DNA from: Candidatus Binatia bacterium
Lineage (GTDB): Bacteria > Methylomirabilota > Methylomirabilia > Rokubacteriales > CSP1-6
Length of the DNA: 64,000 nt
Assembly (NCBI GenBank): GCA_035635995.1
Contig: DASPZZ010000190.1
Location: 47-64,046 of the forward strand
Direction of reading: 5' to 3'
The notes under the pieces were generated by a model. The model made no database searches and had not been told where the DNA came from. It saw only the letters and a program-made list of their open reading frames with translations. The position numbers and the translations under genes were made by a program. Shown here piece after piece: positions 36,010 to 52,025 of this stretch; the stretch's first letter is position 1, and each line of letters starts with the position of its first letter.

Positions 36010-37632
36010 TCAGAACAGGCCGACGATGTTGCCGTTCGCGTCGATGTCGATCCCTTCAGCGCCGGGCACCTTCGGGAGGCCCGGCATCGTGAGGATGTCC
36101 CCTGCGTACGCGACGACGAAGCCGGCGCCCGCGGAGAGCGCGACGTCACGCACCGTGATCGTGAACCCGCGCGGTCGGCCGGGCCGCTTCGGGTCGTCGC
36201 TGAGCGAGTTCTGGGTCTTCGCCACGCACACCGGCAGACGGCCGTAGCCCAGCGACTCGAAGCGTGACAGCTTGGCGGCGGCCACCGGCGCGAACGCCAC
36301 CCCATCGGCGCCGTACACGCGCTTCGCGAGCGTCTCGAGCTTCGCGGCCAGCCCGAGCTCGTCGGGATAGAGATAACGGAAGGCCGAGCGGTCGCTGGAC
36401 CGGATCGCGTCGAGGACCATGCCGGCGAGATCGGTCACGCCGGCGCCGCCGAGCTCCCAGCCCCGTGACACGCCGCAGGGCACCCCGAGCGTCCGGCAGC
36501 TGGACAGCACCGCGTCGACTTTCGCGTCGGTATCGTCGGTGAAGCGGTTCAGCGCGACGACCGGCGGGAGACCGAAGAGGCGCACGTTCTCGACGTGCTT
36601 GGCCAGGTTCTCCTCCCCGTGCAGCGCCAGGGCGCGCGTCGTGACGACGATGACCGCCGCCGAGGGCACCAGACCTCCGGTTCGACACTTGATATCCACG
36701 AACTTCTCGGCGCCCAGGTCGCTCGCGAAGCCGGCCTCGGTGACCACGACCTCGCCGAGCTTGAGCCCCAGCCGGGTGGCGACGAGGCTGTTGCAGCCGT
36801 GGGCGATGTTGCCGAACGGCCCGCCGTGGACGAGCGCGGGCGTGCCCTCGAGCGTCTGAACGAGGTTGGGCTTGATGGCCTCCTTCATGAGGACCGCCAT
36901 CGCGCCCGCGGCCCGGAGCTCGCGCGCCGTGACCAGAGTCCCCTCGCCCTTCTCGGCGACCACGATGCGCTCGACCCGCGCCTTGAAATCCTGGAGGTCG
37001 CGGGCCAGGCACAGAATCGCCATGACCTCCGAGGCGACCGTGATGTCGAAGCCGCTCTCCCGCGGGACGCCGTGGGCCGGCCCACCCAACCCGACGACGA
37101 CGCGGCGCAGGGCGCGATCGTTCATGTCGAGGGCGCGCTTCCAGAGAATCCGCCTGACGTCGAGTGCCAGCGCATTGCCCTGCGCCAGATGATTGTCCAG
37201 CATCGCGGCCAGGAGATTGTGCGCGGCCCCGATCGCGTGCATGTCGCCGGTGAAGTGGAGGTTGATGTCCTCCATCGGCGCCACCTGGGTGTGACCCCCG
37301 CCGGTTCCACCGCCCTTGGCGCCGAACACCGGCCCGAGCGACGGCTCGCGCATCGCGACGACCGCACGCTTCCCGAGCCGGCGCAGCCCGTCGGCGAGGC
37401 CGATCGTGGTGGTGGACTTGCCTTCCCCCGCGGGCGTCGGGGTCATCGCCGTCACCAGGACGAGCGCCCCGTCCGGGCGGGCGCTCGCGCGCTCGATCGC
37501 CTCCCAGCGGATCTTCGCCTTGTAGCTCCCGTACGGCTCGAGGTCGCCGCCATTCAACCCGAGCGCCTCGCCGATCGCCTGGATCGGCTGGAGCTTCACT
37601 GCGCGCGCGATTTCGATGTCCTGTTTTCCCAT
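36010..37632 (-). CDS. fhs: Formate--tetrahydrofolate ligase
   Basis: TPTPAGEGKSTT, REPSLGP, INLHFTGD, VHGGPFGNIAHG, KTQNSLSD, TMPGLP. Confidence 0.97.
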   Translation of the reverse strand: MGKQDIEIARAVKLQPIQAIGEALGLNGGDLEPYGSYKAKIRWEAIERASARPDGALVLVTAMTPTPAGEGKSTTTIGLADGLRRLGKRAVVAMREPSLGPVFGAKGGGTGGGHTQVAPMEDINLHFTGDMHAIGAAHNLLAAMLDNHLAQGNALALDVRRILWKRALDMNDRALRRVVVGLGGPAHGVPRESGFDITVASEVMAILCLARDLQDFKARVERIVVAEKGEGTLVTARELRAAGAMAVLMKEAIKPNLVQTLEGTPALVHGGPFGNIAHGCNSLVATRLGLKLGEVVVTEAGFASDLGAEKFVDIKCRTGGLVPSAAVIVVTTRALALHGEENLAKHVENVRLFGLPPVVALNRFTDDTDAKVDAVLSSCRTLGVPCGVSRGWELGGAGVTDLAGMVLDAIRSSDRSAFRYLYPDELGLAAKLETLAKRVYGADGVAFAPVAAAKLSRFESLGYGRLPVCVAKTQNSLSDDPKRPGRPRGFTITVRDVALSAGAGFVVAYAGDILTMPGLPKVPGAEGIDIDANGNIVGLF

Positions 37633-41440: not shown

Positions 41441-41785
41441 GTGGGCAACGTGGAGCGCTGCGACAAGACGCTGGCGGTCAACGAGATGATGTTTCACGTC
41501 CGCCGTGACGCCGCGCTGCGCGCGCGATTCGTCAGCGACCTCGAGGGGCTCGCGCGAGAGTTCGGCTTGAGCCGTGCCGAGTACGAGGCGGTTCGCGACA
41601 AGGACCCCCGCCGGATGATGGACCTCGGCGTGCATCAGTACTATGTGCCGCAGATCCTCCGGCTGTTCTTCGGCGCCGCGCACAATAGCAACGCCAGCGC
41701 CGCCCTCGAGTGTTACCAGCGCGCATACCCGGAAGAGACGGCGAAGGCGATGGCCCTGCAGGCTCGGCTCGAGCGAGCGCGATAA
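41441..41785 (+). CDS. LigA-like small subunit of extradiol dioxygenase
   Basis: RARFVSD...EFGLSRAEYEAV...LGVHQY pattern; GGGAGG RBS; TAATG overlap with next gene. Confidence 0.75.
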   Translation: MGNVERCDKTLAVNEMMFHVRRDAALRARFVSDLEGLAREFGLSRAEYEAVRDKDPRRMMDLGVHQYYVPQILRLFFGAAHNSNASAALECYQRAYPEETAKAMALQARLERAR

Positions 41786-42627
41786 TGGCCCGGCTCGTCG
41801 GCGCGATGGCCATGACGCATTCGCCCGGCCTCACCGGATGGTTCACGCGGGCCTCCCAGGAATACCAGCAGCTCGCGCTCCAGGCGACCGCCGAGATGCG
41901 GCGCCGGTTGGAGGCGGCGCGCCCGGACGTCGTCGTGATGTTCAGCAACGACCACTTGCTCAACTGGCCGATCAACAACATGCCGGAGTACACCGTCGGC
42001 ATCGGCGAGGAGCACGTCGGGCCCGCCGAGTGGTTCGACGAGTGGCTCGCCATGGAGAAGTACCGTGTACCCGGCCACGCGCCGATCGCGCGGTGGATCG
42101 TCAACGAGGGCGCGCGCCACGGGCTGTCGCTCGCCTACCTCCGCGAGATGCAGTTCGACGACGGCATCTCCGTGCCGACCCACTACCTGAACCCCGACGC
42201 CCAGTTCCGGATGGTCCCCGTGACGATGAACTGCACCGTGCCGCCGATTCCGACGCCCGAGCGCGCGTATCACGTCGGGACGCTCATGCGCGACATGCTC
42301 GCCGCCTACCCCGGTGGCGAGCGGGTCGCGGTGGTTGCGACCGGGGGGCTCTCGCACGAGCCGGGCGGGCCCCGATACTTCTGGGTGGACGAGGAGTTCG
42401 ATCGATGGTTCCTCGATCTGTTGAAGAAGGGCGACCACGCGGCGCTGCTGCGCGAGTGCACGCTCGAGCGGATGGAAGCGGCCGGCTCCGGAGGGACCGC
42501 CGAGCTGCTCGCCTGGGTGCTCGTCCTCGCCTTCACCCGCGGTCCGGCGGACGTGCTCGCTTACATGCCCGCCGTGGCGTGGCGGTCGGGCACGGGCATG
42601 GTGGTCTGGAACGAGCTGGCCCGATGA
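41785..42627 (+). CDS. LigB-family (class III) extradiol ring-cleavage dioxygenase
   Basis: MTHSP, NDH, TGGLSHEPG, GTAE metal and catalytic residues. Confidence 0.9.
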   Translation: MARLVGAMAMTHSPGLTGWFTRASQEYQQLALQATAEMRRRLEAARPDVVVMFSNDHLLNWPINNMPEYTVGIGEEHVGPAEWFDEWLAMEKYRVPGHAPIARWIVNEGARHGLSLAYLREMQFDDGISVPTHYLNPDAQFRMVPVTMNCTVPPIPTPERAYHVGTLMRDMLAAYPGGERVAVVATGGLSHEPGGPRYFWVDEEFDRWFLDLLKKGDHAALLRECTLERMEAAGSGGTAELLAWVLVLAFTRGPADVLAYMPAVAWRSGTGMVVWNELAR

Positions 42628-42646
42628 CCGGAGGACCCTGACCCCG

Positions 42647-43585
42647 ATGGCGACCACGCACCACCTCGACCGGGAGACGGTCCACCGGGAGTGGAACAAC
42701 GCGCTGCCACCGCGGCTCACGATCGATCCGGGCGACACCGTGGTGTTCGACACGCGCGACGCCGCCGACGGATACTACTCGCCGACTTCCACCCACTCCG
42801 ATGTGCTCGCGCGTGGTCCGTTCCGCGGCCACCCGCTGACGGGTCCCGTGGCGGTCAAGGGGGCCCGGCCCGGCGACATCCTGACGGTGGAGATCCTCGA
42901 GGTGAAGCCCGCCGCCGCCTTCGGCTGGACAGCGATCCGTCCGGGCCGGGGCCTCCTGCCGGAGGCCGAGTTCCCGAAGCCGTTCCTGACGATCTGGGAC
43001 CTGAGCGACGGCACTCACGCGCGGATGGGCCGCGACGTCAGAGTCCCCATCGCCTCCTTTCCGGGCGTGATGGGCGTGGCCCTCGACGAGCCCGGCGGGC
43101 ACAGCACGATGCCGCCTCGGAAGAACGGCGGCAACATGGACATCAAGCAGCTGGTCGCGGGGACGACGCTCCTCCTGCCCGTCTGGGTGGACGGCGCCCT
43201 CTTCAGCGTCGGCGACGCTCACGCCGCACAGGGCGACGGCGAGGTGTGCGTCACGGCCGTCGAGATGATGGCGCGGGTCACGCTCCGATTCGGTCTCGAG
43301 CCCGGACGCGGGATCCGGGAGCCGCGCTTTCGGACACGCGGGCCGCTCGCGTCCGCCTTCGAGCGCGGGCCGTGCTTCGCGACGACCGCTCACGGCCCCG
43401 ACCTCTTCGCCAGCGCCCAGCAGGCCATCCGCTACATGATCGAGCACCTGGTGGACGAGCGCGGCCTCGGCCGCGAAGAGGCCTACATCCTCTGCAGCGT
43501 GGCCGTCGATCTCAAGATCAGCGAGATCGTCGACGCGCCCAACTGGATCGTCTCGGCGTTCCTTCCCGAGGCCGTCTTCGCGTGA
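42647..43585 (+). CDS. Acetamidase/formamidase family protein
   Basis: HPLTGPV, GGNMD, VGDAHAAQGDGEVCVTAVE, ISEIVDAPN. Confidence 0.93.
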   Translation: MATTHHLDRETVHREWNNALPPRLTIDPGDTVVFDTRDAADGYYSPTSTHSDVLARGPFRGHPLTGPVAVKGARPGDILTVEILEVKPAAAFGWTAIRPGRGLLPEAEFPKPFLTIWDLSDGTHARMGRDVRVPIASFPGVMGVALDEPGGHSTMPPRKNGGNMDIKQLVAGTTLLLPVWVDGALFSVGDAHAAQGDGEVCVTAVEMMARVTLRFGLEPGRGIREPRFRTRGPLASAFERGPCFATTAHGPDLFASAQQAIRYMIEHLVDERGLGREEAYILCSVAVDLKISEIVDAPNWIVSAFLPEAVFA

Positions 43586-43665
43586 GGCTCGACCGCTTCG
43601 AGCGGCGCGACGGCCGCCGGCTTGCCCGACACACGCACTTCTCGCTCTCGCCGGCACCCGCCTGA
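43582..43665 (+). pseudogene. 27-aa remnant resembling the C-terminus of a SnoaL/NTF2-like protein
   Basis: GTGA-coupled to the amidase; VRLDRFERRDGRRLARHTHFSLSPAPA*. Confidence 0.45.
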
Positions 43666-43697
43666 CTGGCGCGGGCCGGCCGCCCACAGGAGGGGCC

Positions 43698-44534
43698 ATG
43701 CACTACGGTGTCTTCATCTTCCCGACGGATTACTCGATCCGGATCGACGAGCTGGCGCGGGCCGCGGAGGAGCGGGGGTTCGAGTCTCTGTTCGTGACCG
43801 AGCACACCCACATTCCGACGAGCCGGCGATCGCCGTTCGCCGGCGGCGGGCCGCTGCCCAAGGAGTACGCCCACACGCTCGACCCGTTCGTCGGGCTCGC
43901 CGCCGCGGCGGCGGCAACGCGAACGCTCAAGGTCGGCACCGGCATCTGCCTCGTCATCGAGCACGACCCGATCACGCTGGCCAAGACGATCGCGAGCCTC
44001 GATCTCCTCTCCAACGGACGGTTCCTGTTCGGTATCGGGGCCGGCTGGAACGCCGAGGAGATGGAGAACCACGGCACCGCCTTCAAGACACGCTTTCGGC
44101 TTCTTCGCGAGCGGATCCTCGCGATGAAGGAGATCTGGACGAAGGAGGCGGCCGAGTACCACGGCGAGTTCGTCAACTTCGACCCGATCTGGTCGTATCC
44201 GAAACCGGCGCAAAAGCCGCACCCGCCGGTCCTGTTGGGCGGCGAGAGCGGTCACACGCTCCAGCGCGTCGTGGATTTCTGCGATGGCTGGTTTCCACGC
44301 GGGCGCAACGCCGAGGCGATCCTGCCCGGGCTCGTCGACCTGAGAGCGCGTGCCGCACGGGCCGGCCGAGACCCCGCGACCATCTCGGTGTCGGTGTTCG
44401 CGGCGAAGGCTGAGCGCGCCACGCTCGACGCCTATGCCGCCGCCGGAGTCACGCGCGCGATTTTGAGGCTGCCGTCGGAGGGTCGCGACCCGGTGCTGTC
44501 GCTCCTGGATCAGCACGCCAAGCTGATTCGGTGA
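43698..44534 (+). CDS. LLM class (probably F420-dependent) oxidoreductase
   Basis: AEERGFESLFVTEHTHIP, LDPFV, SNGRFLFGIGAGWNAEE, PKPAQKPHPP. Confidence 0.92.
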   Translation: MHYGVFIFPTDYSIRIDELARAAEERGFESLFVTEHTHIPTSRRSPFAGGGPLPKEYAHTLDPFVGLAAAAAATRTLKVGTGICLVIEHDPITLAKTIASLDLLSNGRFLFGIGAGWNAEEMENHGTAFKTRFRLLRERILAMKEIWTKEAAEYHGEFVNFDPIWSYPKPAQKPHPPVLLGGESGHTLQRVVDFCDGWFPRGRNAEAILPGLVDLRARAARAGRDPATISVSVFAAKAERATLDAYAAAGVTRAILRLPSEGRDPVLSLLDQHAKLIR

Positions 44535-44965
44535 GCGACCTCCCCGCCTTCGCCGCCGAGCTCCTGCGAGAGAGCCGGGTCGCCCGGCTCGGCACGGCGG
44601 ACCGGGCGGGTCAGCCGCTCGTCGTGCCGGTGTGCTACGTCTTCGACGGCCGGGCGTGCTTCTCCGCAATCGACGCGAAGCCCAAGCGGGTCGCGGCCGG
44701 GGCGCTCCGGCGCGTGCGCAACATCGCGGAGAACCCGCGCGTGTCCCTGGCCGTCGATCGCTACGACGAAGAGTGGTCGCGGCTCTGCTGGGTGATCGTG
44801 CAGGGGCGGGCCGACATTCTCACGGACGGGCCTGAGCGGGCGGTCGCCGTCGATCTCCTGCGGGCCAAGTACGCGCAGTATCGGGTTCTGGGGCTCGACC
44901 GAGAAACCGCGACGGTGATTCGCATCTCGCCCGAGCGAACGCTGTTCTGGAGCTGGAACGGCTGA
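44531..44965 (+). CDS. PPOX class F420-dependent oxidoreductase (Rv0121-like)
   Basis: VARLGT, IDAKPK, RRVRNIAENPRVSLAVDRYDEEWSRL, KYAQY. Confidence 0.9.
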   Translation: MSDLPAFAAELLRESRVARLGTADRAGQPLVVPVCYVFDGRACFSAIDAKPKRVAAGALRRVRNIAENPRVSLAVDRYDEEWSRLCWVIVQGRADILTDGPERAVAVDLLRAKYAQYRVLGLDRETATVIRISPERTLFWSWNG

Positions 44966-44986: not shown

Positions 44987-46600
44987 CTAGCGCCTCTCGA
45001 TCTGGAGGCCGGCCTGCGAGACCAGCACGCCTGCCTGCCCGGCCTGGCGCATCGCCTGCGCCAGCCGGTGCTTCTCGATCCACGCCCTGATCTCGAGATC
45101 CCGGTGGATGTCGAAGAACTCCGCGGTCATGGTGATCAGCTGGGTCACCTTGCCGAGGTTGTCCTGGAGCTGGAAGACCTGCGCGTTCCGCTGGAAATCG
45201 TAGAAGTCGTAGACCGTGCACAGCGGGAACTCGCGCTGCAGATACCCTCGCACGACTCCGATCTTCGTCTCGTCGAGCGCCGGGTGGTCGAGGAACTTCC
45301 GCCACTGAGGCGCGAGCTCACCGTTGTCCGGGAGGGTGAGTCCTTGGAGGATACGCCGCTGCTTCTCCGTCAGGTCACCGATCGCGTCGTGGGACTCGTC
45401 GGTGGCCTCGTCGGGGGCCACCTCGTTGGCGGTGACCTCGATGTCCGCGGCGAAGGGCAGGATCTCGAGCGGAGCCGGAGCTGGAGCTGGGGGCGGCGTC
45501 GCCGGCGGGACACTCGCCCGCGGCGCCGCCGGCGCGGACGCTGGCCGCGTGTCGAACGTGCTCGTCAGCCGGTCGAGGAACTTCCTCCAGGTCGGCGCGA
45601 GGTCCCCCTGCGGGGCATCGCTCCGCGTGAGGTCGTTCTTCGACGCGCCGTTCTTCGGGACATCGCTCCTGGCGGGCGCGGGCGGCGCCGGGGGCTTGAC
45701 GACCTCGCGCGGGGCCGTGGGCTTCCCTTCCACCGGGCCTGGCAGCACATCGGGCACCTCGCGCGAGCGGCCACGGGGTGGAGGCTCTGTGGGCGGACGC
45801 AGCCCCTTGAGCACTACCGGCGGCCGCTCCGCTCGCTCACTGGCGTCCCTGCTGAGGGCGCCGTTCGTCGCCGCGGGCTCGACGATCCGGGGAGCCGCCT
45901 TGGGCTCGTGGAGCATCACGATCCTCGGCTCCTCGACCGGGACGAGCGGGACGATCTTCGGCTCTTCGCGCGGCGCGACCTTTGGCTCTTCGCGCAGCTC
46001 CTCCCGCGGCTCCTCGCGTAGCAGCACGAGCTTCGGCTCTTCGCGCGGCACGACTCTCGGCTCCTCGCGCGGAACGACCGCCTCCTCGACGATCGGCTGC
46101 TCGACGCGCGCTGGCCGCGGTGCGACCGTCTCGGAGCCGGGGGACGCCGGTGCCCAGTCGACCCGGTTCAGATAGAAGCCCGTCGTGCCGTTCGCCTCGA
46201 CGTAGCGAAACTCGAAGCAGTCGACTGCGGAGAAGCTGAGCAGCCGCATTTTGCGCACGAACGACTCGAGCAGGCGCTCCGCTACGAACACGATCCGCGG
46301 CGGCCACCCGGGCTCCAGGGTCGCGGGGACGAGTCGCTGCACCGACTCGGGATACTCGAGACACCACGCGTACGCCTCGAGCGCTCGCACGAGCATGGCG
46401 TCATCGGCGGTAAGGCCCAGGATGAAGAGGACCGGCACATGCTCACCGTCGATCGCGGCGAGCTCGACGCTCGTTCGGCCGAGATTGAGATTCGACGCGA
46501 GGATCTGGAGGCCGGGCTCCATGGCGTCGGCGTTGTCTGCGACGAGCGTTGCAAGATGCTGCAGACTTGTCACTTCTCGGCGCTTGAATGTCAGCTTCAT
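44987..46600 (-). CDS. Hypothetical protein: degenerate NucS/PD-(D/E)xK-like N-domain, Pro/Glu-rich repeat linker, globular C-domain
   Basis: 537-aa ORF with GC-genome codon usage; PREEP(R/K) repeats; duplicated G(D/E)LAPxWRKFLD motif. Confidence 0.75.
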   Translation of the reverse strand: MKLTFKRREVTSLQHLATLVADNADAMEPGLQILASNLNLGRTSVELAAIDGEHVPVLFILGLTADDAMLVRALEAYAWCLEYPESVQRLVPATLEPGWPPRIVFVAERLLESFVRKMRLLSFSAVDCFEFRYVEANGTTGFYLNRVDWAPASPGSETVAPRPARVEQPIVEEAVVPREEPRVVPREEPKLVLLREEPREELREEPKVAPREEPKIVPLVPVEEPRIVMLHEPKAAPRIVEPAATNGALSRDASERAERPPVVLKGLRPPTEPPPRGRSREVPDVLPGPVEGKPTAPREVVKPPAPPAPARSDVPKNGASKNDLTRSDAPQGDLAPTWRKFLDRLTSTFDTRPASAPAAPRASVPPATPPPAPAPAPLEILPFAADIEVTANEVAPDEATDESHDAIGDLTEKQRRILQGLTLPDNGELAPQWRKFLDHPALDETKIGVVRGYLQREFPLCTVYDFYDFQRNAQVFQLQDNLGKVTQLITMTAEFFDIHRDLEIRAWIEKHRLAQAMRQAGQAGVLVSQAGLQIERR

Positions 46601-46751
46601 CGAAGCATCCCCGATCCGTCGAGCAACCGCTGTGCCAGGAGAGCGCGAAGATTACAGCCAAGGAAACCGATGGGTTGCGTGTCAAGCGACGATCGAGGAA
46701 AGACAGCGTGACACGGTATATCGCCTACCTGTCATCGGCTCGCATAGGGTC

Positions 46752-46766
46752 GACAAAGAATTTGTC
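46752..46766. promoter_or_regulatory. Inverted repeat, candidate enhancer-binding-protein site
   Basis: GACAAA-GAA-TTTGTC, ~120 bp upstream of the sigma54 motif; second palindrome TGGCCAG-GGA-CTGGCCA at 46784-46800. Confidence 0.5.
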
Positions 46767-46883
46767 AACAATAAGAATTTACTTGGCCAGGGACTGGCCA
46801 CGGAGGTGAGAGGACCCGAAGCCAGACCTCCCGATCTCAGGGACTTAAAAGACAATTCTATAAATTGCCTGTGCTGGTTAAAG

Positions 46884-46899
46884 TGGCATCCGGCTTGCT
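46884..46899 (+). promoter_or_regulatory. Sigma54 (-24/-12) promoter for the GAF-GGDEF pair
   Basis: TGGCATCCGGCTTGCT fits TGGCAC-N5-TTGC(A/T) with exact GG-N10-GC spacing; AT-rich tract just upstream. Confidence 0.7.
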
Positions 46900-47027
46900 T
46901 AGGTGTGTATCGTATCAGTCTGAGCTCGGAGTTTCCGGACCCGAGCTCTTGGAGGCGACGGAATGCGCGCGGCGGACGCGGTGGCCGGCAGCGAGCCCTG
47001 CAGCAATCGGAGCTACCGACGTTGAAC

Positions 47028-48059
47028 ATGACCCAGGCGTTCAGAGAGCTCGTGCAGATCGGGATCACTCTGACCAGTGAGCAGGACCTCGGAACTCTGC
47101 TCGAGCGCATCCTCACCGAGGCCCGCCGGTTCACGCGCGCCGAGGCCGGCACCTTGTTCCTCCGGGAAGGCGACCAGCTTCGCTTTTCCGTCGTCCAGAA
47201 CGACAAGCTCGCGAAGGAACTCGGTCAGGAGGAGATGCGCCGCCGCCTCCAGGCCGAGCCCCTGAATCTCCGGGAGCTAAGCCTCGCGGGTCACGTCGCC
47301 CTCACCGGCGACATTCTCAATCTGCACGACACCTACATGATCCCGCCGGACCGGCCATACTCGTTCGACTCCAGCGTCGACGCGCGCCTGAACTACCGCA
47401 CCCAGTCGATTCTGGTGGTCCCGCTCCAGGACCCGGCGAACAACATCCTCGGCGTCCTCGAGCTGATCAACGCCCTGGACCGAGGACGCGTCGTGCCCTT
47501 CGATTCGCAGTACGAAAGCCTCGTGCGCTCGCTGGCGTCGCAGGCCGCGGTCGCGCTGCGCAACGCCAGACTGGAGGATCTCTCGTTCAAGGACGCGCTG
47601 ACGGACGTGTACAACCGTCGCTACTTCACGATCCGGATGCAGGAGGAGTTCAAGCGCCATTGCCGCTTCGGTGAGCCGCTCTCGCTGGCCCTGGCCGACC
47701 TCGACCACTTCAAGGACGTCAACGACCGCTTCGGCCACCGGGCCGGCGATCAGGCCCTGCGCGACGTCGCCCAGATCCTGGTGAAGCACTCCCGCAGCTT
47801 CAGCATCGTCACGCGCTACGGCGGCGACGAGTTCGCGATCATCCTCGTGAACACGGCCAAGGATGGGGGCCTCACCTACGCGGAGCGCATTCGTGGCGTC
47901 ATCGAGCAGCATTCGTTCCCGCACGGGCCGGTCACCGTCAGCCTCGGCGTCGCCAGCCTCCCGGAGAACGCCACGACGGTCGACGACCTCGTCGTCGCCG
48001 CCGACCAGGCCCTGTACGATGCCAAGCATCTGGGCCGGAATCGAGTCGCCGTCCCGTGA
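47028..48059 (+). CDS. GAF-GGDEF diguanylate cyclase (intact active site)
   Basis: DALTDVYNRRYF, DLDHFKDVNDRFGH, RYGGDEF; no RxxD I-site (RSFS). Confidence 0.93.
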   Translation: MTQAFRELVQIGITLTSEQDLGTLLERILTEARRFTRAEAGTLFLREGDQLRFSVVQNDKLAKELGQEEMRRRLQAEPLNLRELSLAGHVALTGDILNLHDTYMIPPDRPYSFDSSVDARLNYRTQSILVVPLQDPANNILGVLELINALDRGRVVPFDSQYESLVRSLASQAAVALRNARLEDLSFKDALTDVYNRRYFTIRMQEEFKRHCRFGEPLSLALADLDHFKDVNDRFGHRAGDQALRDVAQILVKHSRSFSIVTRYGGDEFAIILVNTAKDGGLTYAERIRGVIEQHSFPHGPVTVSLGVASLPENATTVDDLVVAADQALYDAKHLGRNRVAVP

Positions 48060-49114
48060 GCCCGTCGACGATGCTCGGCCGCGAACAACTCCTGGAGGAG
48101 CTCCTCGAGATCGGCCTCGCGCTCACCACCGAGCGCGATCTCTACGCGCTGCTCGAACGCGTTCTGGAGGCGGCGCGCCGGTTCACGCGGGCCGAGGCCG
48201 GCACGCTGTTCCTGCGCGAGGGCAACCACCTGCGGTTCGCGGTGGTCCAGAACGATTTCCTCCAGCGGAAGCTGGGCACCCTCGAGCTGCAGCAGCGGCT
48301 CCAGGCCGAGCCGCTTCGCTTGACCGAGCCGAGCCTCGTCGGCCACGTCGCGCAGACCGGCCAGCTCGTCAACATCGCCGACGCGTACGCGCTCGGCGCG
48401 CACGAGACGCGCGCCCTCAACCCGCGGTTCGACGCCGCCAGCGACTACTCGACGCGCTCGGTGCTGGCTGTTCCGCTGCAAGACCTCACCGGGAGCATCG
48501 TCGGGGTGCTCGAGCTCCTGAACGCCCTCGACGAGTCCGGCGCGATCGTTCCGTTCGAGCCCGACGACGAGAAGCTGATCCGGGCGCTCGCCTCCCAGGC
48601 TGCGGTCGCGATCCGCAACGCGCGACTCGAGAATCTCTCGTTCAAGGACGCCTCGACCGAGCTCTACAACCGCCGCTACTTCGACCTGCGGATCGACGAA
48701 GAGGTCAAGCGTCATACCCGGTTCGGCCACCCCCTGTCGCTCGTCGTCCTGAACATCGATCACTTCAAGCAGCTCGACGCGGACCACGGTGGTGCGGCGG
48801 GCGACGAGGTGCTCCGGGAGGTGGCGCGGCTGTTGCTCAAGCATTCCCGGAGCTTCACCATCATCGCCCGCCTCGACGGCGACGGGTTCGCGGCGCTGCT
48901 CGCCAACACACCCAAGGCCGGCGCCGTCACCTACTCGCAGCGGATCCGTGGCGTCATCGCGACCCATCCGTTCGCGCACGGGACGATCACCGCGAGCTTC
49001 GGCGTCGCCGGCCTCCCCGCTGACGCGGCCTCGGCGGACGACCTGATCGCGGCGGCCCAGCGGGCACTGAACGAGGCGAAACGGCTCGGCCGGAACCGCG
49101 TCACCGCGCTCTGA
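48056..49114 (+). CDS. GAF-GGDEF protein with degenerate active site
   Basis: Paralog of upstream gene; NIDHFKQLDADHGG and RLDGDGF replace catalytic residues; alternative start 48071. Confidence 0.9.
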   Translation: MSPSTMLGREQLLEELLEIGLALTTERDLYALLERVLEAARRFTRAEAGTLFLREGNHLRFAVVQNDFLQRKLGTLELQQRLQAEPLRLTEPSLVGHVAQTGQLVNIADAYALGAHETRALNPRFDAASDYSTRSVLAVPLQDLTGSIVGVLELLNALDESGAIVPFEPDDEKLIRALASQAAVAIRNARLENLSFKDASTELYNRRYFDLRIDEEVKRHTRFGHPLSLVVLNIDHFKQLDADHGGAAGDEVLREVARLLLKHSRSFTIIARLDGDGFAALLANTPKAGAVTYSQRIRGVIATHPFAHGTITASFGVAGLPADAASADDLIAAAQRALNEAKRLGRNRVTAL

Positions 49115-49202
49115 GGCCCCGTCGTGGCGTCCTGGAACGCCACCCGCGCTTGACTTGGATCGGGATCGTGTGTCATTAGGTTCCGCATCGAGGAGGAACC
49201 CG

Positions 49203-49883
49203 ATGAGCAAGAGCCCGTTCCGCGCACAGCTGGAAGCCGCCGTCAGCGCCCGACACAGCCGCCTGAACCCCTTCACCGAGAAGTGGGTCAAGGGCGAGCT
49301 GACGCGTGCCCAGCTCGGCGCCTGGGCGGCCCAGCACTATCAGTACGTCTCGCAGTTCGCGCGCTGGTGCGCCACCGTGTACGGCGAGTGTCCGGACCCG
49401 GACGCTCGGGACTTCCTGCTCGAGAACATCATCGAGGAAGAATCCGGCACCAAACACGTCGACCTGCTGATCCGCTTCGCGGAGGCGTGCGGCGTCTCCC
49501 GCACCGAGGTGGAGTCGAAGCAGCAGCTCCCGACGACCCGCGGGCTCACCGCGTGGTGCTTCGAGATGTCTCACCAGCCGTTCCACATCGCGGCGGCCGG
49601 GCTCCTCGTCGGGCTCGAATCCCAGGTGCCGGGCATCTACCAGCGCAACCTGCCGCCGCTCAAGGCGCACTACGGCTTCACGGATCACGAGGTCGAGTTC
49701 TTCGCGATCCACATCGAGGCGGACGAGGTCCACGGCGAGCGCGGCTACCAGATCGTCGAACGGCATTGCACGACCGCCGCGCGGCAGGCGGAGGCGGTCG
49801 ACGCGGTCCGCCAGGCGACCGAGATGCGCTGGCAATACATGACCGGCCTCTATCGCGCCTTCGTCGCGAAGGAGGAGATGTGA
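49203..49883 (+). CDS. CADD/PqqC/TenA-like heme-oxygenase-fold dimetal oxidase (HDO)
   Basis: ENIIEEESGTKH, GLESQVP, HIEADEVH ligand set; AGGAGGA RBS. Confidence 0.88.
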   Translation: MSKSPFRAQLEAAVSARHSRLNPFTEKWVKGELTRAQLGAWAAQHYQYVSQFARWCATVYGECPDPDARDFLLENIIEEESGTKHVDLLIRFAEACGVSRTEVESKQQLPTTRGLTAWCFEMSHQPFHIAAAGLLVGLESQVPGIYQRNLPPLKAHYGFTDHEVEFFAIHIEADEVHGERGYQIVERHCTTAARQAEAVDAVRQATEMRWQYMTGLYRAFVAKEEM

Positions 49884-50188
49884 GTCGCTGCCGTGTCGCC
49901 CGCCTGGAGAATCTCGCGGTCGGCCAGCTGACGCTGGTCGAGGCCGACGGCACGCGGGTCGTGCTGGCGCGCGTGAAGGACGACGTCTTCGCGTGCAGCG
50001 ACGAGTGCAGCCACCAGGGCGGCCCTCTCAGCGAGGGCCGGCTCTCCGGCACCCGGCTCGCCTGTCCCTGGCACGGCTGGATGTACGACGTGAAGTCCGG
50101 TGAATGCATGATGCCCACACGCGGCGGGCGGGTGGCGACCTATCCGGTGACGATCGAAGCCGGAGAAGTCTGGGTGGAGGTTCCCTGA
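49880..50188 (+). CDS. Rieske [2Fe-2S] ferredoxin
   Basis: CSHQGGPL...CPWHGW; GTGA overlap with HDO gene. Confidence 0.92.
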   Translation: MSRCRVARLENLAVGQLTLVEADGTRVVLARVKDDVFACSDECSHQGGPLSEGRLSGTRLACPWHGWMYDVKSGECMMPTRGGRVATYPVTIEAGEVWVEVP

Positions 50189-50189
50189 C

Positions 50190-50612
50190 ATGGCGCTCAC
50201 CCGAGAGCGGGCGCGCGCGAGCATCGAACGCGGCTTCGCCACCGCGCGGGCGCTCGGCTTCAAGGTCGCCATCGCCGTCGTGGACGACGCCGGCCACCTG
50301 GTCGTCTGCGATCGCATGGACGGCGCCCTCTGGGTGACGCCCGAGATCGCGCGTGCGAAGGCCAACGCGGCGGCCGCCTTTCACGCGACGACGCTCGATC
50401 TGGAAGAGCGGTTCGCCAAGCGCCAGCTCTTCGCCGACAACGTCGCGACGCTCGGCGACTACCGCTTCGTCTTCGGCAAGGGCGCGGTTCCGCTCGTGGA
50501 GGACGGGCGGATCGTCGGCGCGGTGGGCGTGAGCGGCGCCGTCCCCGCCGACAACGACCACACGATCGCGGACGCGGCCGCCGGCCATCCCGTCCTCCCT
50601 CGCAGCCACTAG
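50190..50612 (+). CDS. GlcG/HbpS family heme-binding protein
   Basis: VAIAVVDDAGHL..DRMDGA, ARAKA, IVGAVGVSGA...DH. Confidence 0.9.
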   Translation: MALTRERARASIERGFATARALGFKVAIAVVDDAGHLVVCDRMDGALWVTPEIARAKANAAAAFHATTLDLEERFAKRQLFADNVATLGDYRFVFGKGAVPLVEDGRIVGAVGVSGAVPADNDHTIADAAAGHPVLPRSH

Positions 50613-50685
50613 GGGGGCGGGGGCGGCGGCGGCGGTCCCCACGGCCGGGTCCCCTGGTACCGCTTTCTGAGGTAAAGTGGCGGTC

Positions 50686-50844
50686 ATGCAGTTCGAGGTC
50701 GAAGTGCATCGGAACGAGCTCGGCGAATGGGTCGCGATCGCCGTCGCCTGGAACGTCCAGGCCACCGGACACACCGAGAACGAGGCGCTCGCCCGGATGA
50801 TGGACGCGCTGGCGCACCACTTCAAGGCCTCGTCACGGAAGTGA
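50686..50844 (+). CDS. 52-aa HicB-like small protein (not in ORF track)
   Basis: MQFEVEVHRNELGEWVAIAVAWNVQATGHTENEALARMMDALAHHFKASSRK*; GTGA overlap with next gene. Confidence 0.65.
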   Translation: MQFEVEVHRNELGEWVAIAVAWNVQATGHTENEALARMMDALAHHFKASSRK

Positions 50845-52025
50845 GCGGCGCGCTCTCCGGCCTGCGGGTCATCGACTGCTCTCGCTTGATCGCCGGCGGC
50901 GTGCTCGCGACGATCCTCGCCGACTACGGCGCCGACGTGATCAAGGTCGAGAATCCGCGCGGGGGCGATCCGCTACGGACGTGGCTCCGGGACCGGGGCG
51001 AGCTCTGGTGGAAGGTGTATGCGCGCGGCAAGCGTTCGGTCACGCTGAATCTCGCCCGCCCGCAAGGGCAGGCGCTCCTCCGGCGGCTGAGCCGGAGCGC
51101 CGACGTCTTGATCGAGAACTTCCTTCCCGGCACTTTCGAGAAGTGGGGCCTCGGCTGGAGCGTGCTCTCCCAAGAAAATCCACGGCTCGTCTTCGCCCGC
51201 GTGTCCGGCTGGGGCCAGGACGGCCCGTATCGCGACCGGCCCGGGTTCGGCACGATGGTCGAAGCGATGAGCGGCTTCGCGGCGTCGACGGGCCCGGCCG
51301 ACCGGCCGCCGACGCTCCCGTCGTTTCCGATGGCCGACATGGTCGCCGCACTCTCGGGCACGGCCGCGGTCCTGGCCGCTCTGCGGCACCGCGATCACGC
51401 TTCCGGCCGAGGCCAGGTGATCGACATCTCCCTCTACGAGCCCTTGCTCTCCGTGCTGGGTCCGACCGCCGCCGAGTACGCGCTCGACCGCACGGTGCGG
51501 GCGCGCCACGGCAACCAGTCGGACAACGCGAGCCCGCGCGGCACCTATCAGACGCGCGACGGCAAGTGGGTCGCGCTGTCGGCGTCGACGCCCGCCTCGG
51601 CGACCGCGCTCTTCGAGGGGCTGGGCCTCCGGGGCCTTCTGAGCGACCCGCGGTTCGCGACCAACGACACGCGGGTCGCCCACAACGACCTCGTGGACGT
51701 GGCGCTCACGGGCGCCATCGGGGCACGCACGCTCGACGAGATGCTGCGTCTCTTCGAGACGATGGACCTCACGGCGTCCCCGGTCTACGACATTGCCGAC
51801 ATCACCAAGGACCCGCACGTGATTGCGCGCGGGATCCTCGTCGACGTTGCGGATCCCGAGCTCGGGACGGTGCGCATGACGGCGCCGACGCCGCGCCTGG
51901 GGGAGACGCCGGCGGCGATCCACTGGGCGGGACCCGCGCTCGGGGCGCACAACCACGAAGTCTACGGATCGCTCGGCCTGGACGAAGCCGAGCTCCACGC
52001 GCTTTCGCGCGACGGCGTCATCTGA
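50841..52025 (+). CDS. Family III CoA-transferase (CaiB/BaiF)
   Basis: DYGADVIKVE, RGKRS, ENFLPG, SGWGQDGPY, PMADMV. Confidence 0.93.
   Translation: MSGALSGLRVIDCSRLIAGGVLATILADYGADVIKVENPRGGDPLRTWLRDRGELWWKVYARGKRSVTLNLARPQGQALLRRLSRSADVLIENFLPGTFEKWGLGWSVLSQENPRLVFARVSGWGQDGPYRDRPGFGTMVEAMSGFAASTGPADRPPTLPSFPMADMVAALSGTAAVLAALRHRDHASGRGQVIDISLYEPLLSVLGPTAAEYALDRTVRARHGNQSDNASPRGTYQTRDGKWVALSASTPASATALFEGLGLRGLLSDPRFATNDTRVAHNDLVDVALTGAIGARTLDEMLRLFETMDLTASPVYDIADITKDPHVIARGILVDVADPELGTVRMTAPTPRLGETPAAIHWAGPALGAHNHEVYGSLGLDEAELHALSRDGVI

Follow-up and report, generated by a model that had tools for sequence, protein, structure and literature searches.

A conserved gene trio in Rokubacteria joins a CADD-like heme-oxygenase-like oxidase to a Rieske ferredoxin and a GlcG/DUF336 protein

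Layout of the three genes

The window, that is, the whole stretch of 64,000 nucleotides that was analysed, comes from an uncultured soil bacterium, a Rokubacterium, whose genome is 99% complete in 365 contigs. The features considered are the following.

49203-49883, + strand: HDO, a heme-oxygenase-like dimetal oxidase of the CADD/PqqC branch (226 aa, ATG start)
49880-50188, + strand: stand-alone Rieske-type [2Fe-2S] ferredoxin (102 aa, GTG start)
50190-50612, + strand: GlcG/DUF336 (HbpS-like) protein, 'type A' (140 aa)
49190-49196, + strand: Shine-Dalgarno-like GAGGAGG, 7 nt 5' of the HDO start, as read from the sequence
41441-42627, + strand: class III extradiol ring-cleavage dioxygenase LigA/LigB, at a distance of 7.5 kb on the upstream side; a lead only, as a candidate further component

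The arrangement given in the first-pass annotation, three genes joined by a 4-bp overlap and then a 1-bp gap, was confirmed at 49203-50612 on the + strand. The HDO stop and the Rieske start share GTGA (49880-49883), and the GlcG gene begins 1 base past the Rieske stop. The Rieske start has AAGGAGGA just 5' of it, with a purine-rich motif (49870-49877) lying inside the HDO gene, and the GlcG start follows a similar motif (50173-50180) inside the Rieske gene; as sequence features, these motifs are consistent with coupled translation. A scan for promoters and terminators between 48900 and 51000 found none, using a consensus that may not fit the host phylum. In metatranscriptomes, contigs resembling parts of each of the three genes at 85-95% were present in two RNA runs, X19 and X20, from two studies. 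These matches are relatives, seen as contigs only and with DNA carry-over possible, and none of the contigs spans the HDO-Rieske junction with 31 letters on each side.

The oxidase: fold, metal ligands and the residues of CADD

HDO is a member of the HDO superfamily, with 112.4 bits against PF14518 (gathering score 28.9). Its AlphaFold model is all-helical (pLDDT 96.7), and the fold search found in it the seven-helix heme-oxygenase-like fold, with CtCADD as the best solved match (TM 0.88-0.93, rmsd 1.7 A) and CADD, PqqC, UndA, HrmI, FlcD and BesC as the top matches. The first-pass annotation had ascribed a full dimetal ligand set to the protein (EEESGTKH, ESQ, HxxxDxxH), and all of these motifs are present: the six ligands of CADD are kept as E79, H85, E139, H170, D174 and H177 (3His/3carboxylate). 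They are invariant in 21 diverse relatives, in a 54-row alignment and in 62/62 Rokubacterial orthologs, and they are unchanged across relatives down to 30% identity. A 3His/3carboxylate motif on the core helices is described for HDOs (PMC13108848). From these residues, HDO is predicted to bind two metals and to activate O2.

Public annotations vary and include 'TenA family transcriptional regulator', 'pyrroloquinoline-quinone synthase' and 'aldehyde dehydrogenase'.

We also considered that this fold could belong to a non-redox protein, which might be a binding protein, a hydrolase like TenA or an oxidase that, like PqqC, works without a cofactor, and whose gene order would be inherited synteny with no joint function. 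A PF03070 (TENA/THI-4/PQQC) match over residues 23-124 agrees with this, as do the diversity of public annotations and the fact that PqqC needs no metal. However, the invariance of the six ligands argues against it, and so does the score of only 73 bits with the PqqC model TIGR02111, for which the cut-off is 240. In addition, the trio stays intact while its flanks change, GlcG is swapped in place and stop/start overlaps are common (see below). We regard a non-redox protein as very improbable.

In CADD, the substrate is Tyr27 and the amine donor Lys152, corresponding to Tyr25 and Lys159 of NePabS, and the sources describe both residues as proven essential in both proteins. The first-pass annotation had placed Thr and Asn at these positions, and the HMMER alignment to CT610 (1rcw), from which the position pairs were counted by hand in its printed form, bears this out, with Thr25 for Tyr27 and Asn149 for Lys152. 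Thr25 is found in 62/62 Rokubacterial orthologs and Asn149 in 58/62, the others having Ser (3) or Thr (1). Likewise, two further tyrosines of CADD that neighbour its ligand Glu142, Tyr139 and Tyr141, correspond to Val136 and Leu138 in HDO and in 62/62 orthologs. Among 89 full-length HDO representatives (50% identity), Tyr and Lys co-occur in 35; those matching HDO with E <1e-30 are all without both. The CADD branch of HDOs comprises about 500 clusters at E up to 1e-10. HDO is thus a CADD relative devoid of the sacrificial pair, as had been proposed, and, with this pair gone, does not belong to the known type of self-sacrificing pABA synthase.

The gene neighbourhood agrees with the earlier statement that no pqq or folate-biosynthesis gene is adjacent. 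CADD-type genes are placed in a folate-biosynthesis gene cluster in the account of PMC9522330. Among the annotated genes at 34-64 kb of the window, there is no pqqA, pqqB, pqqD or pqqE, and no folate-biosynthesis gene occurs among the annotated neighbours of the trio; the formate-tetrahydrofolate ligase at 36010-37632 stands for folate use, not synthesis.

A pABA role for HDO is unlikely. It could still be imagined that HDO makes 4-aminobenzoate catalytically, with no sacrificed residues, converting a free precursor to pABA for folate, with the ferredoxin giving the electrons that CADD lacks. The nearest characterised relatives, CtCADD and NePabS, are both pABA synthases. Moreover, a dihydropteroate synthase scores over its cut-off on another contig of the genome, in which no PabB was found and the chorismate-binding enzymes are TrpE (539 bits, trpE_most cut-off 517.7) and a second TrpE-TrpG-ThiL fragment only; no Tyr/Lys-type CADD occurs among the seven Rokubacterial paralogs examined. 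Against this, HDO falls below the cut-off of the CADD family TIGR04305 (139.8 bits, cut-off 200), the two essential residues are replaced, a folate-biosynthesis neighbour is absent, and the proteobacterial sister family described below lies amid catabolic genes. Furthermore, most trio-less genomes of the same family also have a single chorismate-binding match, so that the order must obtain pABA another way; a clear second full-length chorismate enzyme was seen only in two of the trio-less family genomes checked (G010 and G087). An anticorrelation of PabB with the trio was also considered and dropped, since PF00425 counts over 151 genomes show no clean pattern. Taken together, we consider a catalytic pABA synthase quite unlikely.

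Partner genes across loci and the electron carrier

The triplet is conserved well beyond this genome and holds together throughout the bacterial order of its host. The first-pass annotation had called for a neighbourhood survey on this point and had named a lack of conservation as grounds for refutation; the outcome is in its favour. In 61 orthologous loci of other genomes, the order is HDO>Rieske>GlcG in 54, HDO>GlcG in 6 and HDO>Rieske in 1, so GlcG is kept in 60/61 loci and the Rieske gene in 55/61. The genes lie on one strand throughout, mostly overlapping or a few bases apart, while the genes flanking the trio change from genus to genus. GlcG occurs as type A in 44 loci and as type B in 16, the two being 32-34% identical to each other. 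As tblastn misses the divergent type B, 15 of 16 seemingly GlcG-less loci, and one seemingly partnerless locus, in fact carry it. Judged by these sequences, GlcG is replaced in place by a distant paralog, type A vs type B. The trio is real, conserved and uncharacterised. Literature searches returned no paper on a CADD or heme-oxygenase-like oxidase with a Rieske protein as a system, and nothing relevant on HDO with sulfonate, TauE or taurine, nor on PF14518 with ferredoxin.

The Rieske protein scores 64.3 bits against PF00355 (cut-off 20.3). Its CxH...CxxH cluster ligands C43, H45, C62 and H65 are invariant in 36 Rieske orthologs, as is C76. It matches over the full length the ferredoxins of naphthalene, biphenyl, carbazole and toluene systems, including T4moC (E 5e-8), and falls under every equivalog cut-off, so it is assigned to no named member. 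No ferredoxin reductase gene lies in or beside the trio at the annotated loci. The co-fold of HDO with the Rieske protein (score 0.01, mark 0.32) counts neither for nor against their pairing.

The proteobacterial sister family of HDO is 46-49% identical and has Ser/Gln at the positions of CADD Tyr27/Lys152. No Rieske gene was found in 80 loci of this family. Instead, a Fer2-like ferredoxin adjoins HDO in 51/72 loci, and a plant-type [2Fe-2S] Fer2 protein or a Fer2-FAD-NAD reductase lies at most 4 genes from it in 58/75. GlcG is near HDO in 25/80 loci; the order HDO>GlcG>reductase is seen in L144 and L147, as well as in L145 if a tblastn match to GlcG is accepted where the gene caller puts another ORF. 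The surroundings comprise GntR, aldehyde dehydrogenase, TauE and transporter genes. In Acidimicrobiia, more distant relatives of HDO (~39% identical) were retrieved in 38 loci by a genome-contig search with a single protein (P0142), which brought up this clade only. Within 8 kb of these, neither Rieske nor GlcG was found, except for a distant Rieske match in L063 and a GlcG in L068, which implies that an HDO of this branch can work without dedicated neighbours.

The carriers of the sister family make likely the electron-donor role that had been suggested for the [2Fe-2S] protein, its main support being that the carrier type is swapped between Rokubacteria and the sister family. This exchange, together with the gene order, suggests electron transfer from the Rieske protein to HDO. 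The first-pass annotation had added that native reductants are unknown for most HDOs. This is overstated: in vitro work on HDOs is described as relying mostly on artificial reductants (PMC13725569), but a tested HDO-reductase pair now exists in MboA/MboB, in which the HDO MboA requires for full turnover MboB, a [2Fe-2S] redox protein encoded beside it (PMC13725569, PMC13108848). The clusters for streptozotocin and azomycin are also noted to contain ferredoxin-like genes (PMC13725569).

Six loci have HDO and GlcG with no Rieske gene, which indicates that a neighbouring Rieske gene is not a strict requirement; other stand-alone Rieske ferredoxins are present in these six genomes. We examined whether the functional pair could be HDO with GlcG, the Rieske protein mainly serving a different enzyme; it might, for instance, maintain the reduced iron of the LigAB dioxygenase nearby. 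XylT-type ferredoxins keep the iron of catechol 2,3-dioxygenase reduced in this way. The retention of GlcG in more loci than the Rieske gene is in line with such a pair. In one distant genus (L076), LigA-LigB immediately precede HDO, and in about ten genera they share a contig with it, within ~11 kb. A LigB ortholog is missing from 5/6 Rieske-less genomes vs 3/55 with the Rieske gene, so the Rieske protein could serve the ring-cleavage enzyme instead. Nevertheless, as a test of dependence this co-loss was set aside, since it comes down to 2 independent contrasts on supported branches of the HDO tree, with which a sign test cannot reach significance. In most loci, it is the HDO stop, not LigAB, that the Rieske gene adjoins, either by overlap or at a distance of bases; LigB and the trio are on separate contigs in several genera, or 0.9 Mb apart on one contig. 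Finally, the sister family encodes ferredoxins of its own next to HDO, and no LigB family member occurs among its annotated cluster representatives. A Rieske protein devoted mainly to another enzyme is thus unlikely, and we keep to HDO as its probable partner.

The genes downstream of the trio (CoA-transferase, amidohydrolase, acyl-CoA synthetase and NMO) were tried as parts of the system and rejected. They are syntenic only in near genera and hence not part of the unit; queries from the window did not find them within 8 kb in 11/20 long loci. The suggestion that the CoA-transferase, the acyl-CoA synthetase and an FMN enzyme process the product was accordingly abandoned, as they accompany the trio only in near genera showing whole-region synteny.

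The third protein matches PF03928 (HbpS-like) with 109.2 bits (cut-off 25), and type B GlcG also matches this family. Its closest solved chains are EfgA (E 1e-10), NahX, HbpS and PduO, at ~30 to 45 bits each. The first-pass name 'GlcG heme protein' is not supported: heme binding by DUF336 proteins is reported, in the available text of PMC8153426, for HbpS and PduO only, and EfgA, its nearest relative of known structure, senses formaldehyde. The same source gives differing functions for DUF336 proteins, namely formaldehyde sensing, heme sensing or unknown. A literature search found no report linking DUF336 with Rieske proteins and, for NahX, no functional study among the matches listed.

Proposed system and comparison with known enzymes

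In our judgement, the three genes probably form one operon for a multi-component, O2-activating dimetal enzyme, with a multi-turnover HDO, a Rieske electron donor and GlcG as third component. HDO would bind two metal ions (Fe/Fe or Fe/Mn) through its three His and three carboxylates, activate O2 and carry out many rounds of oxidation of a free small molecule, without using up a Tyr and a Lys of its own as CADD does. Electrons would pass singly from a reductase encoded elsewhere to the Rieske ferredoxin, and from there to the oxidised metal site, which would be reset after each turnover, a scheme functionally akin to that of the Rieske protein T4moC in toluene-4-monooxygenase and of MboB with MboA. 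The GlcG/DUF336 protein may be an obligate third component; we would guess that it takes up a reactive product, e.g. an aldehyde, or serves the oxidase as effector. Gene structure, ligand set, fold, conservation of the trio and the swap of carriers between lineages are observed, whereas multi-turnover catalysis, the direction in which electrons flow and any GlcG function are inferred from them. The gene contexts (GntR/FCD regulators, transporters, ring-cleavage enzymes or aldehyde dehydrogenases) would point to catabolism and not to cofactor synthesis, where 'catabolic' is drawn from heterogeneous neighbours.

More tentatively, the trio and its proteobacterial counterpart could represent a new class of multicomponent oxygenase on the heme-oxygenase-like fold, a reading by analogy that we put forward as a minority possibility. 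HDO would be catalytic and would take its electrons from the dedicated [2Fe-2S] carrier, and the DUF336/GlcG protein would handle the product or act as effector, by analogy with the effector proteins of ferritin-like diiron monooxygenases, with catalytic CADD-type chemistry on a free substrate. A C-C or C-heteroatom cleavage yielding an aldehyde would be an example of such a reaction. If so, DUF336 proteins would gain their first role in enzymology, and a native reductant would be at hand for HDOs.

According to a 2026 mini-review (PMC13108848), function has been validated for only about a dozen HDOs out of more than 10,000. The trio may reveal how HDO-type enzymes get their electrons, and maybe a new reaction. 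Here, a branch neighbouring CADD no longer has the residues for suicide chemistry and shows a genetic link to a [2Fe-2S] carrier, which suggests a natural electron-delivery system, with a Rieske protein in Rokubacteria and a plant-type ferredoxin or Fer2-FAD-NAD reductase in Proteobacteria. The constant company of DUF336 proteins provides this poorly understood family with a concrete partner. Since genera in culture carry the sister family (Aminobacter, Achromobacter, Bordetella genomosp. 5 and Hydrogenophaga, as named in the sources), bench study is possible without cultivating Rokubacteria.

Among known systems, CtCADD (CT610) and NePabS resemble HDO in their six ligands and similar length, and rank first by sequence among proteins of solved structure (E 3e-25). 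They differ by the substrate Tyr27 and amine-donor Lys152, which are Thr and Asn in HDO, and by their folate-cluster setting, outside of which HDO lies; the sources on CADD, in their available text, mention neither Rieske nor GlcG partners, both of which HDO has.

PqqC has the same fold and forms the second-best group in the fold search (TM ~0.8-0.88). It is metal-free, whereas HDO has the full ligand set and no pqq gene among its annotated neighbours. PqqC is also the usual automatic annotation.

EfgA, NahX, HbpS and the C-terminal domain of PduO are, like GlcG, PF03928 members. None of them is described with an HDO in the available text of the sources, whereas the GlcG gene of the window lies in a trio with one.

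On our reading, toluene-4-monooxygenase (T4moH/C/D/F) is like the trio in having a carboxylate/His diiron site, single electrons from a Rieske ferredoxin of ~110 aa and a small extra protein. However, its hydroxylase has a ferritin-like fold, HDO a heme-oxygenase-like one, and its reductase is encoded in its operon, whereas the trio is without one. To our knowledge, its effector is not a DUF336 protein.

MboA and MboB, compared here by description and not by sequence, act in the mangotoxin biosynthesis cluster, where MboA works on a peptide and no DUF336 partner is mentioned in the available text. MboB is a three-domain reductase, whereas the carrier of the window is a Rieske ferredoxin. Nevertheless, this pair shares with the trio an HDO gene beside that of a [2Fe-2S] redox protein (PMC13725569), and MboB is the same kind of Fer2-FAD-NAD reductase as found at some loci of the sister family.

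The gene trio and its surroundings

The three genes lie head to tail on the forward strand, and gene positions and Pfam matches agree with the coordinates, overlaps and motifs proposed in the first-pass annotation.

Genes of the trio and of the region upstream (window coordinates)
41441-44965: LigA and LigB (class III extradiol dioxygenase), with an acetamidase/formamidase-family protein, an F420-dependent LLM oxidoreductase and a PPOX-class protein
within 44987-49114, - strand: 537-aa proline-rich protein, no Pfam match, back to back with two tandem GAF-GGDEF genes
49203-49883, + strand: HDO (heme-oxygenase-like dimetal oxidase); ATG start after a GAGGAGG motif; PF14518 far over cut-off
49880-50188, + strand: Rieske ferredoxin; GTG start overlapping the HDO stop in GTGA; PF00355 far over cut-off
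50190-50612, + strand: GlcG (DUF336) protein; starts one base past the Rieske stop; PF03928 far over cut-off

The G+C content of the window is about 70%, and the source assembly (4.09 Mb, 365 contigs) is 99% complete with 9% contamination; close homologs carry source-given Rokubacteria names. A scan of 48900-51000 found no promoter or terminator consensus, and such a consensus may not fit the host phylum. Contigs 85-95% like all three genes are present in RNA libraries of two studies, which is no proof of transcription or co-transcription.

Among 151 genomes of the phylum (a tally that takes in G029, G047, G058 and G101), most of those in the window's family have an HDO ortholog, 74-96% identical, as do a few from another family in the same order; a sharp identity gap lies below the orthologs, paralogs being 38% or less identical. 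We compared 61 orthologous loci from other genomes, omitting G029 and G058, as well as G031, G043, G070 and G109 (HDO match cut) and G086 (match at a contig end). The survey of neighbourhoods that had been proposed for the triplet shows it to be kept beyond the window genome, with the order HDO > Rieske > GlcG in 54 of the 61 loci, HDO > GlcG in six and HDO > Rieske in one (L085), where unrelated opposite-strand genes follow the Rieske gene. Gene order and strand are constant, and starts often overlap the preceding stop. In the loci sampled, the trio with a Rieske gene occurs only in Rokubacteria, being adjacent in 0/80 loci of the sister family (proteobacterial HDOs) and in 0/38 other loci.

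Cluster analysis of all neighbours gave no further universal partner, and by Pfam the flanks are mixed (GntR/FCD regulators, ABC and MFS transporters, dehydrogenases). The downstream CoA-transferase, amidohydrolase, acyl-CoA synthetase and NMO-type FMN genes recur only in 9 long loci that also share upstream genes; searched with the window queries, these four kinds were not found within 8 kb in 11 of 20 long loci. This patchy recurrence (9/20) rules them out as members of the system, and the product-processing role first given to the CoA-transferase, acyl-CoA synthetase and FMN enzyme is not supported. Upstream, the LLM oxidoreductase exceeds the TIGR03619 cut-off and the F420-dependent PPOX-class protein that of TIGR03668, and the row at 41441-44965 looks like a small catabolic set for aromatic or nitrogen compounds. 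In the window's genus, the block at 44987-49114 stands between this row and the trio; three GGDEF copies occur in related genera, against two in the window.

The HDO and the self-sacrificing pABA synthases

The best matches of the HDO among solved structures are the chlamydial CADD (CT610/CtCADD, E 3e-25) and a second 4-aminobenzoate synthase (9pj4), followed by PqqC. CtCADD is also the top fold match (TM 0.88-0.93, rmsd 1.7 Å) of an AlphaFold model built from 54 sequences (pLDDT 96.7). The metal ligands E79, H85, E139, H170, D174 and H177 are invariant in all HDO alignments made. In the portion of the CADD literature available, Tyr27 is described as the substrate and Lys152 as the amine donor, both essential. 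Counted along the printed alignment to CT610, these positions are Thr25 and Asn149 in the window HDO, as the first reading had placed them. Tyr139 and Tyr141, which flank the ligand Glu142 in CADD, are Val136 and Leu138. For the NCBIfam CADD model the HDO reaches 139.8 (cut-off 200), and for the PqqC model 73 (cut-off 240). Therefore, with ligands and fold matching, Tyr27 and Lys152 replaced and the CADD model below cut-off, the window HDO has the fold and metal site of CADD without the defining features of the self-sacrificing pABA synthases. Thr25 is invariant among 62 Rokubacterial orthologs, and Asn149 is kept in 58 of them, with Ser in its place in 3 and Thr in 1.

When 1.84 billion representatives were scanned in full with the window HDO, 504 clusters reached an E value of 1e-10 or lower. 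Among the 89 full-length rows of the best 150 clusters, Tyr and Lys occur together in 35, Tyr without Lys in only 3 and Lys without Tyr in none, the rest lacking both. None of the nearest relatives of the window HDO in these best 150 has either residue, so that the non-sacrificial state is, judged from this residue pair, a trait of several HDO subfamilies and not an accident of the window gene. Seven Rokubacterial paralogs (33-36% identical; L115-L121) fill all six ligand positions and have Trp/Phe at the CADD positions; neither a Rieske nor a GlcG gene lies within 3 kb of them. In the window genome's own paralog (L002, contig C288) the pair is Phe/Met, and Glu replaces the Asp174 ligand. A well conserved Acidimicrobiia clade (L032-L067), about 39% identical and of Phe/Leu-Ile type, has no ferredoxin or GlcG neighbours within 8 kb; it includes records titled Candidatus Aldehydirespirator.

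We consider it unlikely that the HDO is itself a pABA synthase. In favour of that reading, the window genome has dihydropteroate synthase (C198, L136), and its chorismate-binding enzymes are of the TrpE kind only, with no PabB found among them; however, most same-family genomes without the trio likewise give a single chorismate-binding match, and the trio thus cannot be how the order in general obtains pABA. The TrpE genes stand in the order TrpE-TrpG-ThiL on contig C87 (L134) and in a second, cut copy on C131 (L135), which may reflect strain heterogeneity, given the 9% contamination.

The Rieske protein as a candidate electron donor

The Rieske cluster ligands, CxH...CxxH, are invariant. In 36 orthologs (alignment A4), a fifth cysteine, C76, never varies, and C39 is nearly invariant. 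The absence of the Rieske gene from 6 of the 61 loci is a point against a dedicated donor; other stand-alone Rieske ferredoxins, in unrelated contexts, are present in each of the five such genomes searched. As a lead, the Rieske protein may work for the LigAB ring-cleavage enzyme, either instead of the HDO or in addition to it; LigAB is encoded 7.5 kb upstream of the trio in the window (41441-42627) and directly upstream of the HDO in L076. A LigAB ortholog is also missing from five of the six genomes with Rieske-less loci, and from only 3 genomes among those of the 55 loci with the Rieske gene (G029, G058 and G101 left out). Nevertheless, this co-loss amounts to only two supported independent contrasts on the HDO tree, which puts significance out of reach.

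The strongest comparative argument for the Rieske protein as electron donor to the HDO comes from the sister family, which is 46-49% identical to the window HDO, has Ser/Gln at the two CADD positions and bears the source names Aminobacter, Achromobacter, Bordetella genomosp. 5, Hydrogenophaga and other Proteobacteria. No Rieske gene was found in its 80 metagenome loci (L140-L219). A Fer2-like ferredoxin of about 114 aa adjoins the HDO in 51 of the 72 loci with a called neighbour, the usual block being HDO > Fer2-like > unknown 102-aa protein > Fer2-like (e.g. L191:4348-8695, L214:1138-7721), and 58 of 75 loci have a Fer2 protein or a three-domain Fer2-FAD-NAD reductase no more than four genes away from the HDO. 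This exchange of carriers fits an HDO that requires an external one-electron donor, for which a supply of differing [2Fe-2S] proteins by lineage would be expected. Within the same distance are also GntR/FCD regulators (32 loci), aldehyde dehydrogenase (19), an unknown 517-aa protein (18), TauE (15), a sulfite-oxidase-like Mo enzyme (10) and, counted separately, the Fer2-FAD-NAD reductase (6). These neighbours suggest an oxygenolytic cleavage that would give an aldehyde, perhaps with sulfite.

The GlcG protein and comparison with known systems

Two GlcG types, 32-34% identical, occupy the third position: type A, that of the window, in 44 loci and type B in 16. The presence of a remote paralog in the same slot argues that selection would act on the slot instead of one particular gene. 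The type is not strictly clade-bound on the HDO tree (5 state changes), type B being found inside type A neighbourhoods in L113 (G146) and L077 (G093). Type B shares 60-73% identity with proteobacterial GlcGs but only about 33% with type A, a hint of lateral acquisition. In the sister family, a GlcG of this kind lies near the HDO in 25 of 80 loci, often beside aldehyde dehydrogenase. L144 (5001-8110) and L147 read HDO > GlcG > reductase > ... > GntR, and in L145 a tblastn match to GlcG falls between HDO and reductase, where the gene caller puts another ORF.

The closest solved relatives of the window GlcG, at 29-45 bits, are the formaldehyde sensor EfgA, NahX, HbpS and the PduO C-terminal domain. 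The available part of the EfgA paper describes DUF336 roles as elusive, heme binding as established for HbpS and PduO, and several members as belonging to aldehyde-producing pathways. The heme-protein label first given to the window GlcG is not supported by the results. We would guess at a link between GlcG and aldehydes, which its pairing with aldehyde dehydrogenase in the sister family would fit.

No published description of an HDO with a Rieske ferredoxin or DUF336 partner was found, most subscription journals lying outside the search. The trio would represent an uncharacterised, non-sacrificial HDO system of the CADD branch with its own electron carrier. A tested precedent is the HDO MboA, which, in the parts of the sources available, requires MboB, of the phthalate-dioxygenase-reductase type; these also note that the streptozotocin and azomycin clusters contain uncharacterised ferredoxin-like genes (PMC13725569; PMC13108848). 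The window Rieske protein itself is similar to ferredoxins that act as stand-alone components of aromatic oxygenases, among them T4moC of the diiron toluene-4-monooxygenase.
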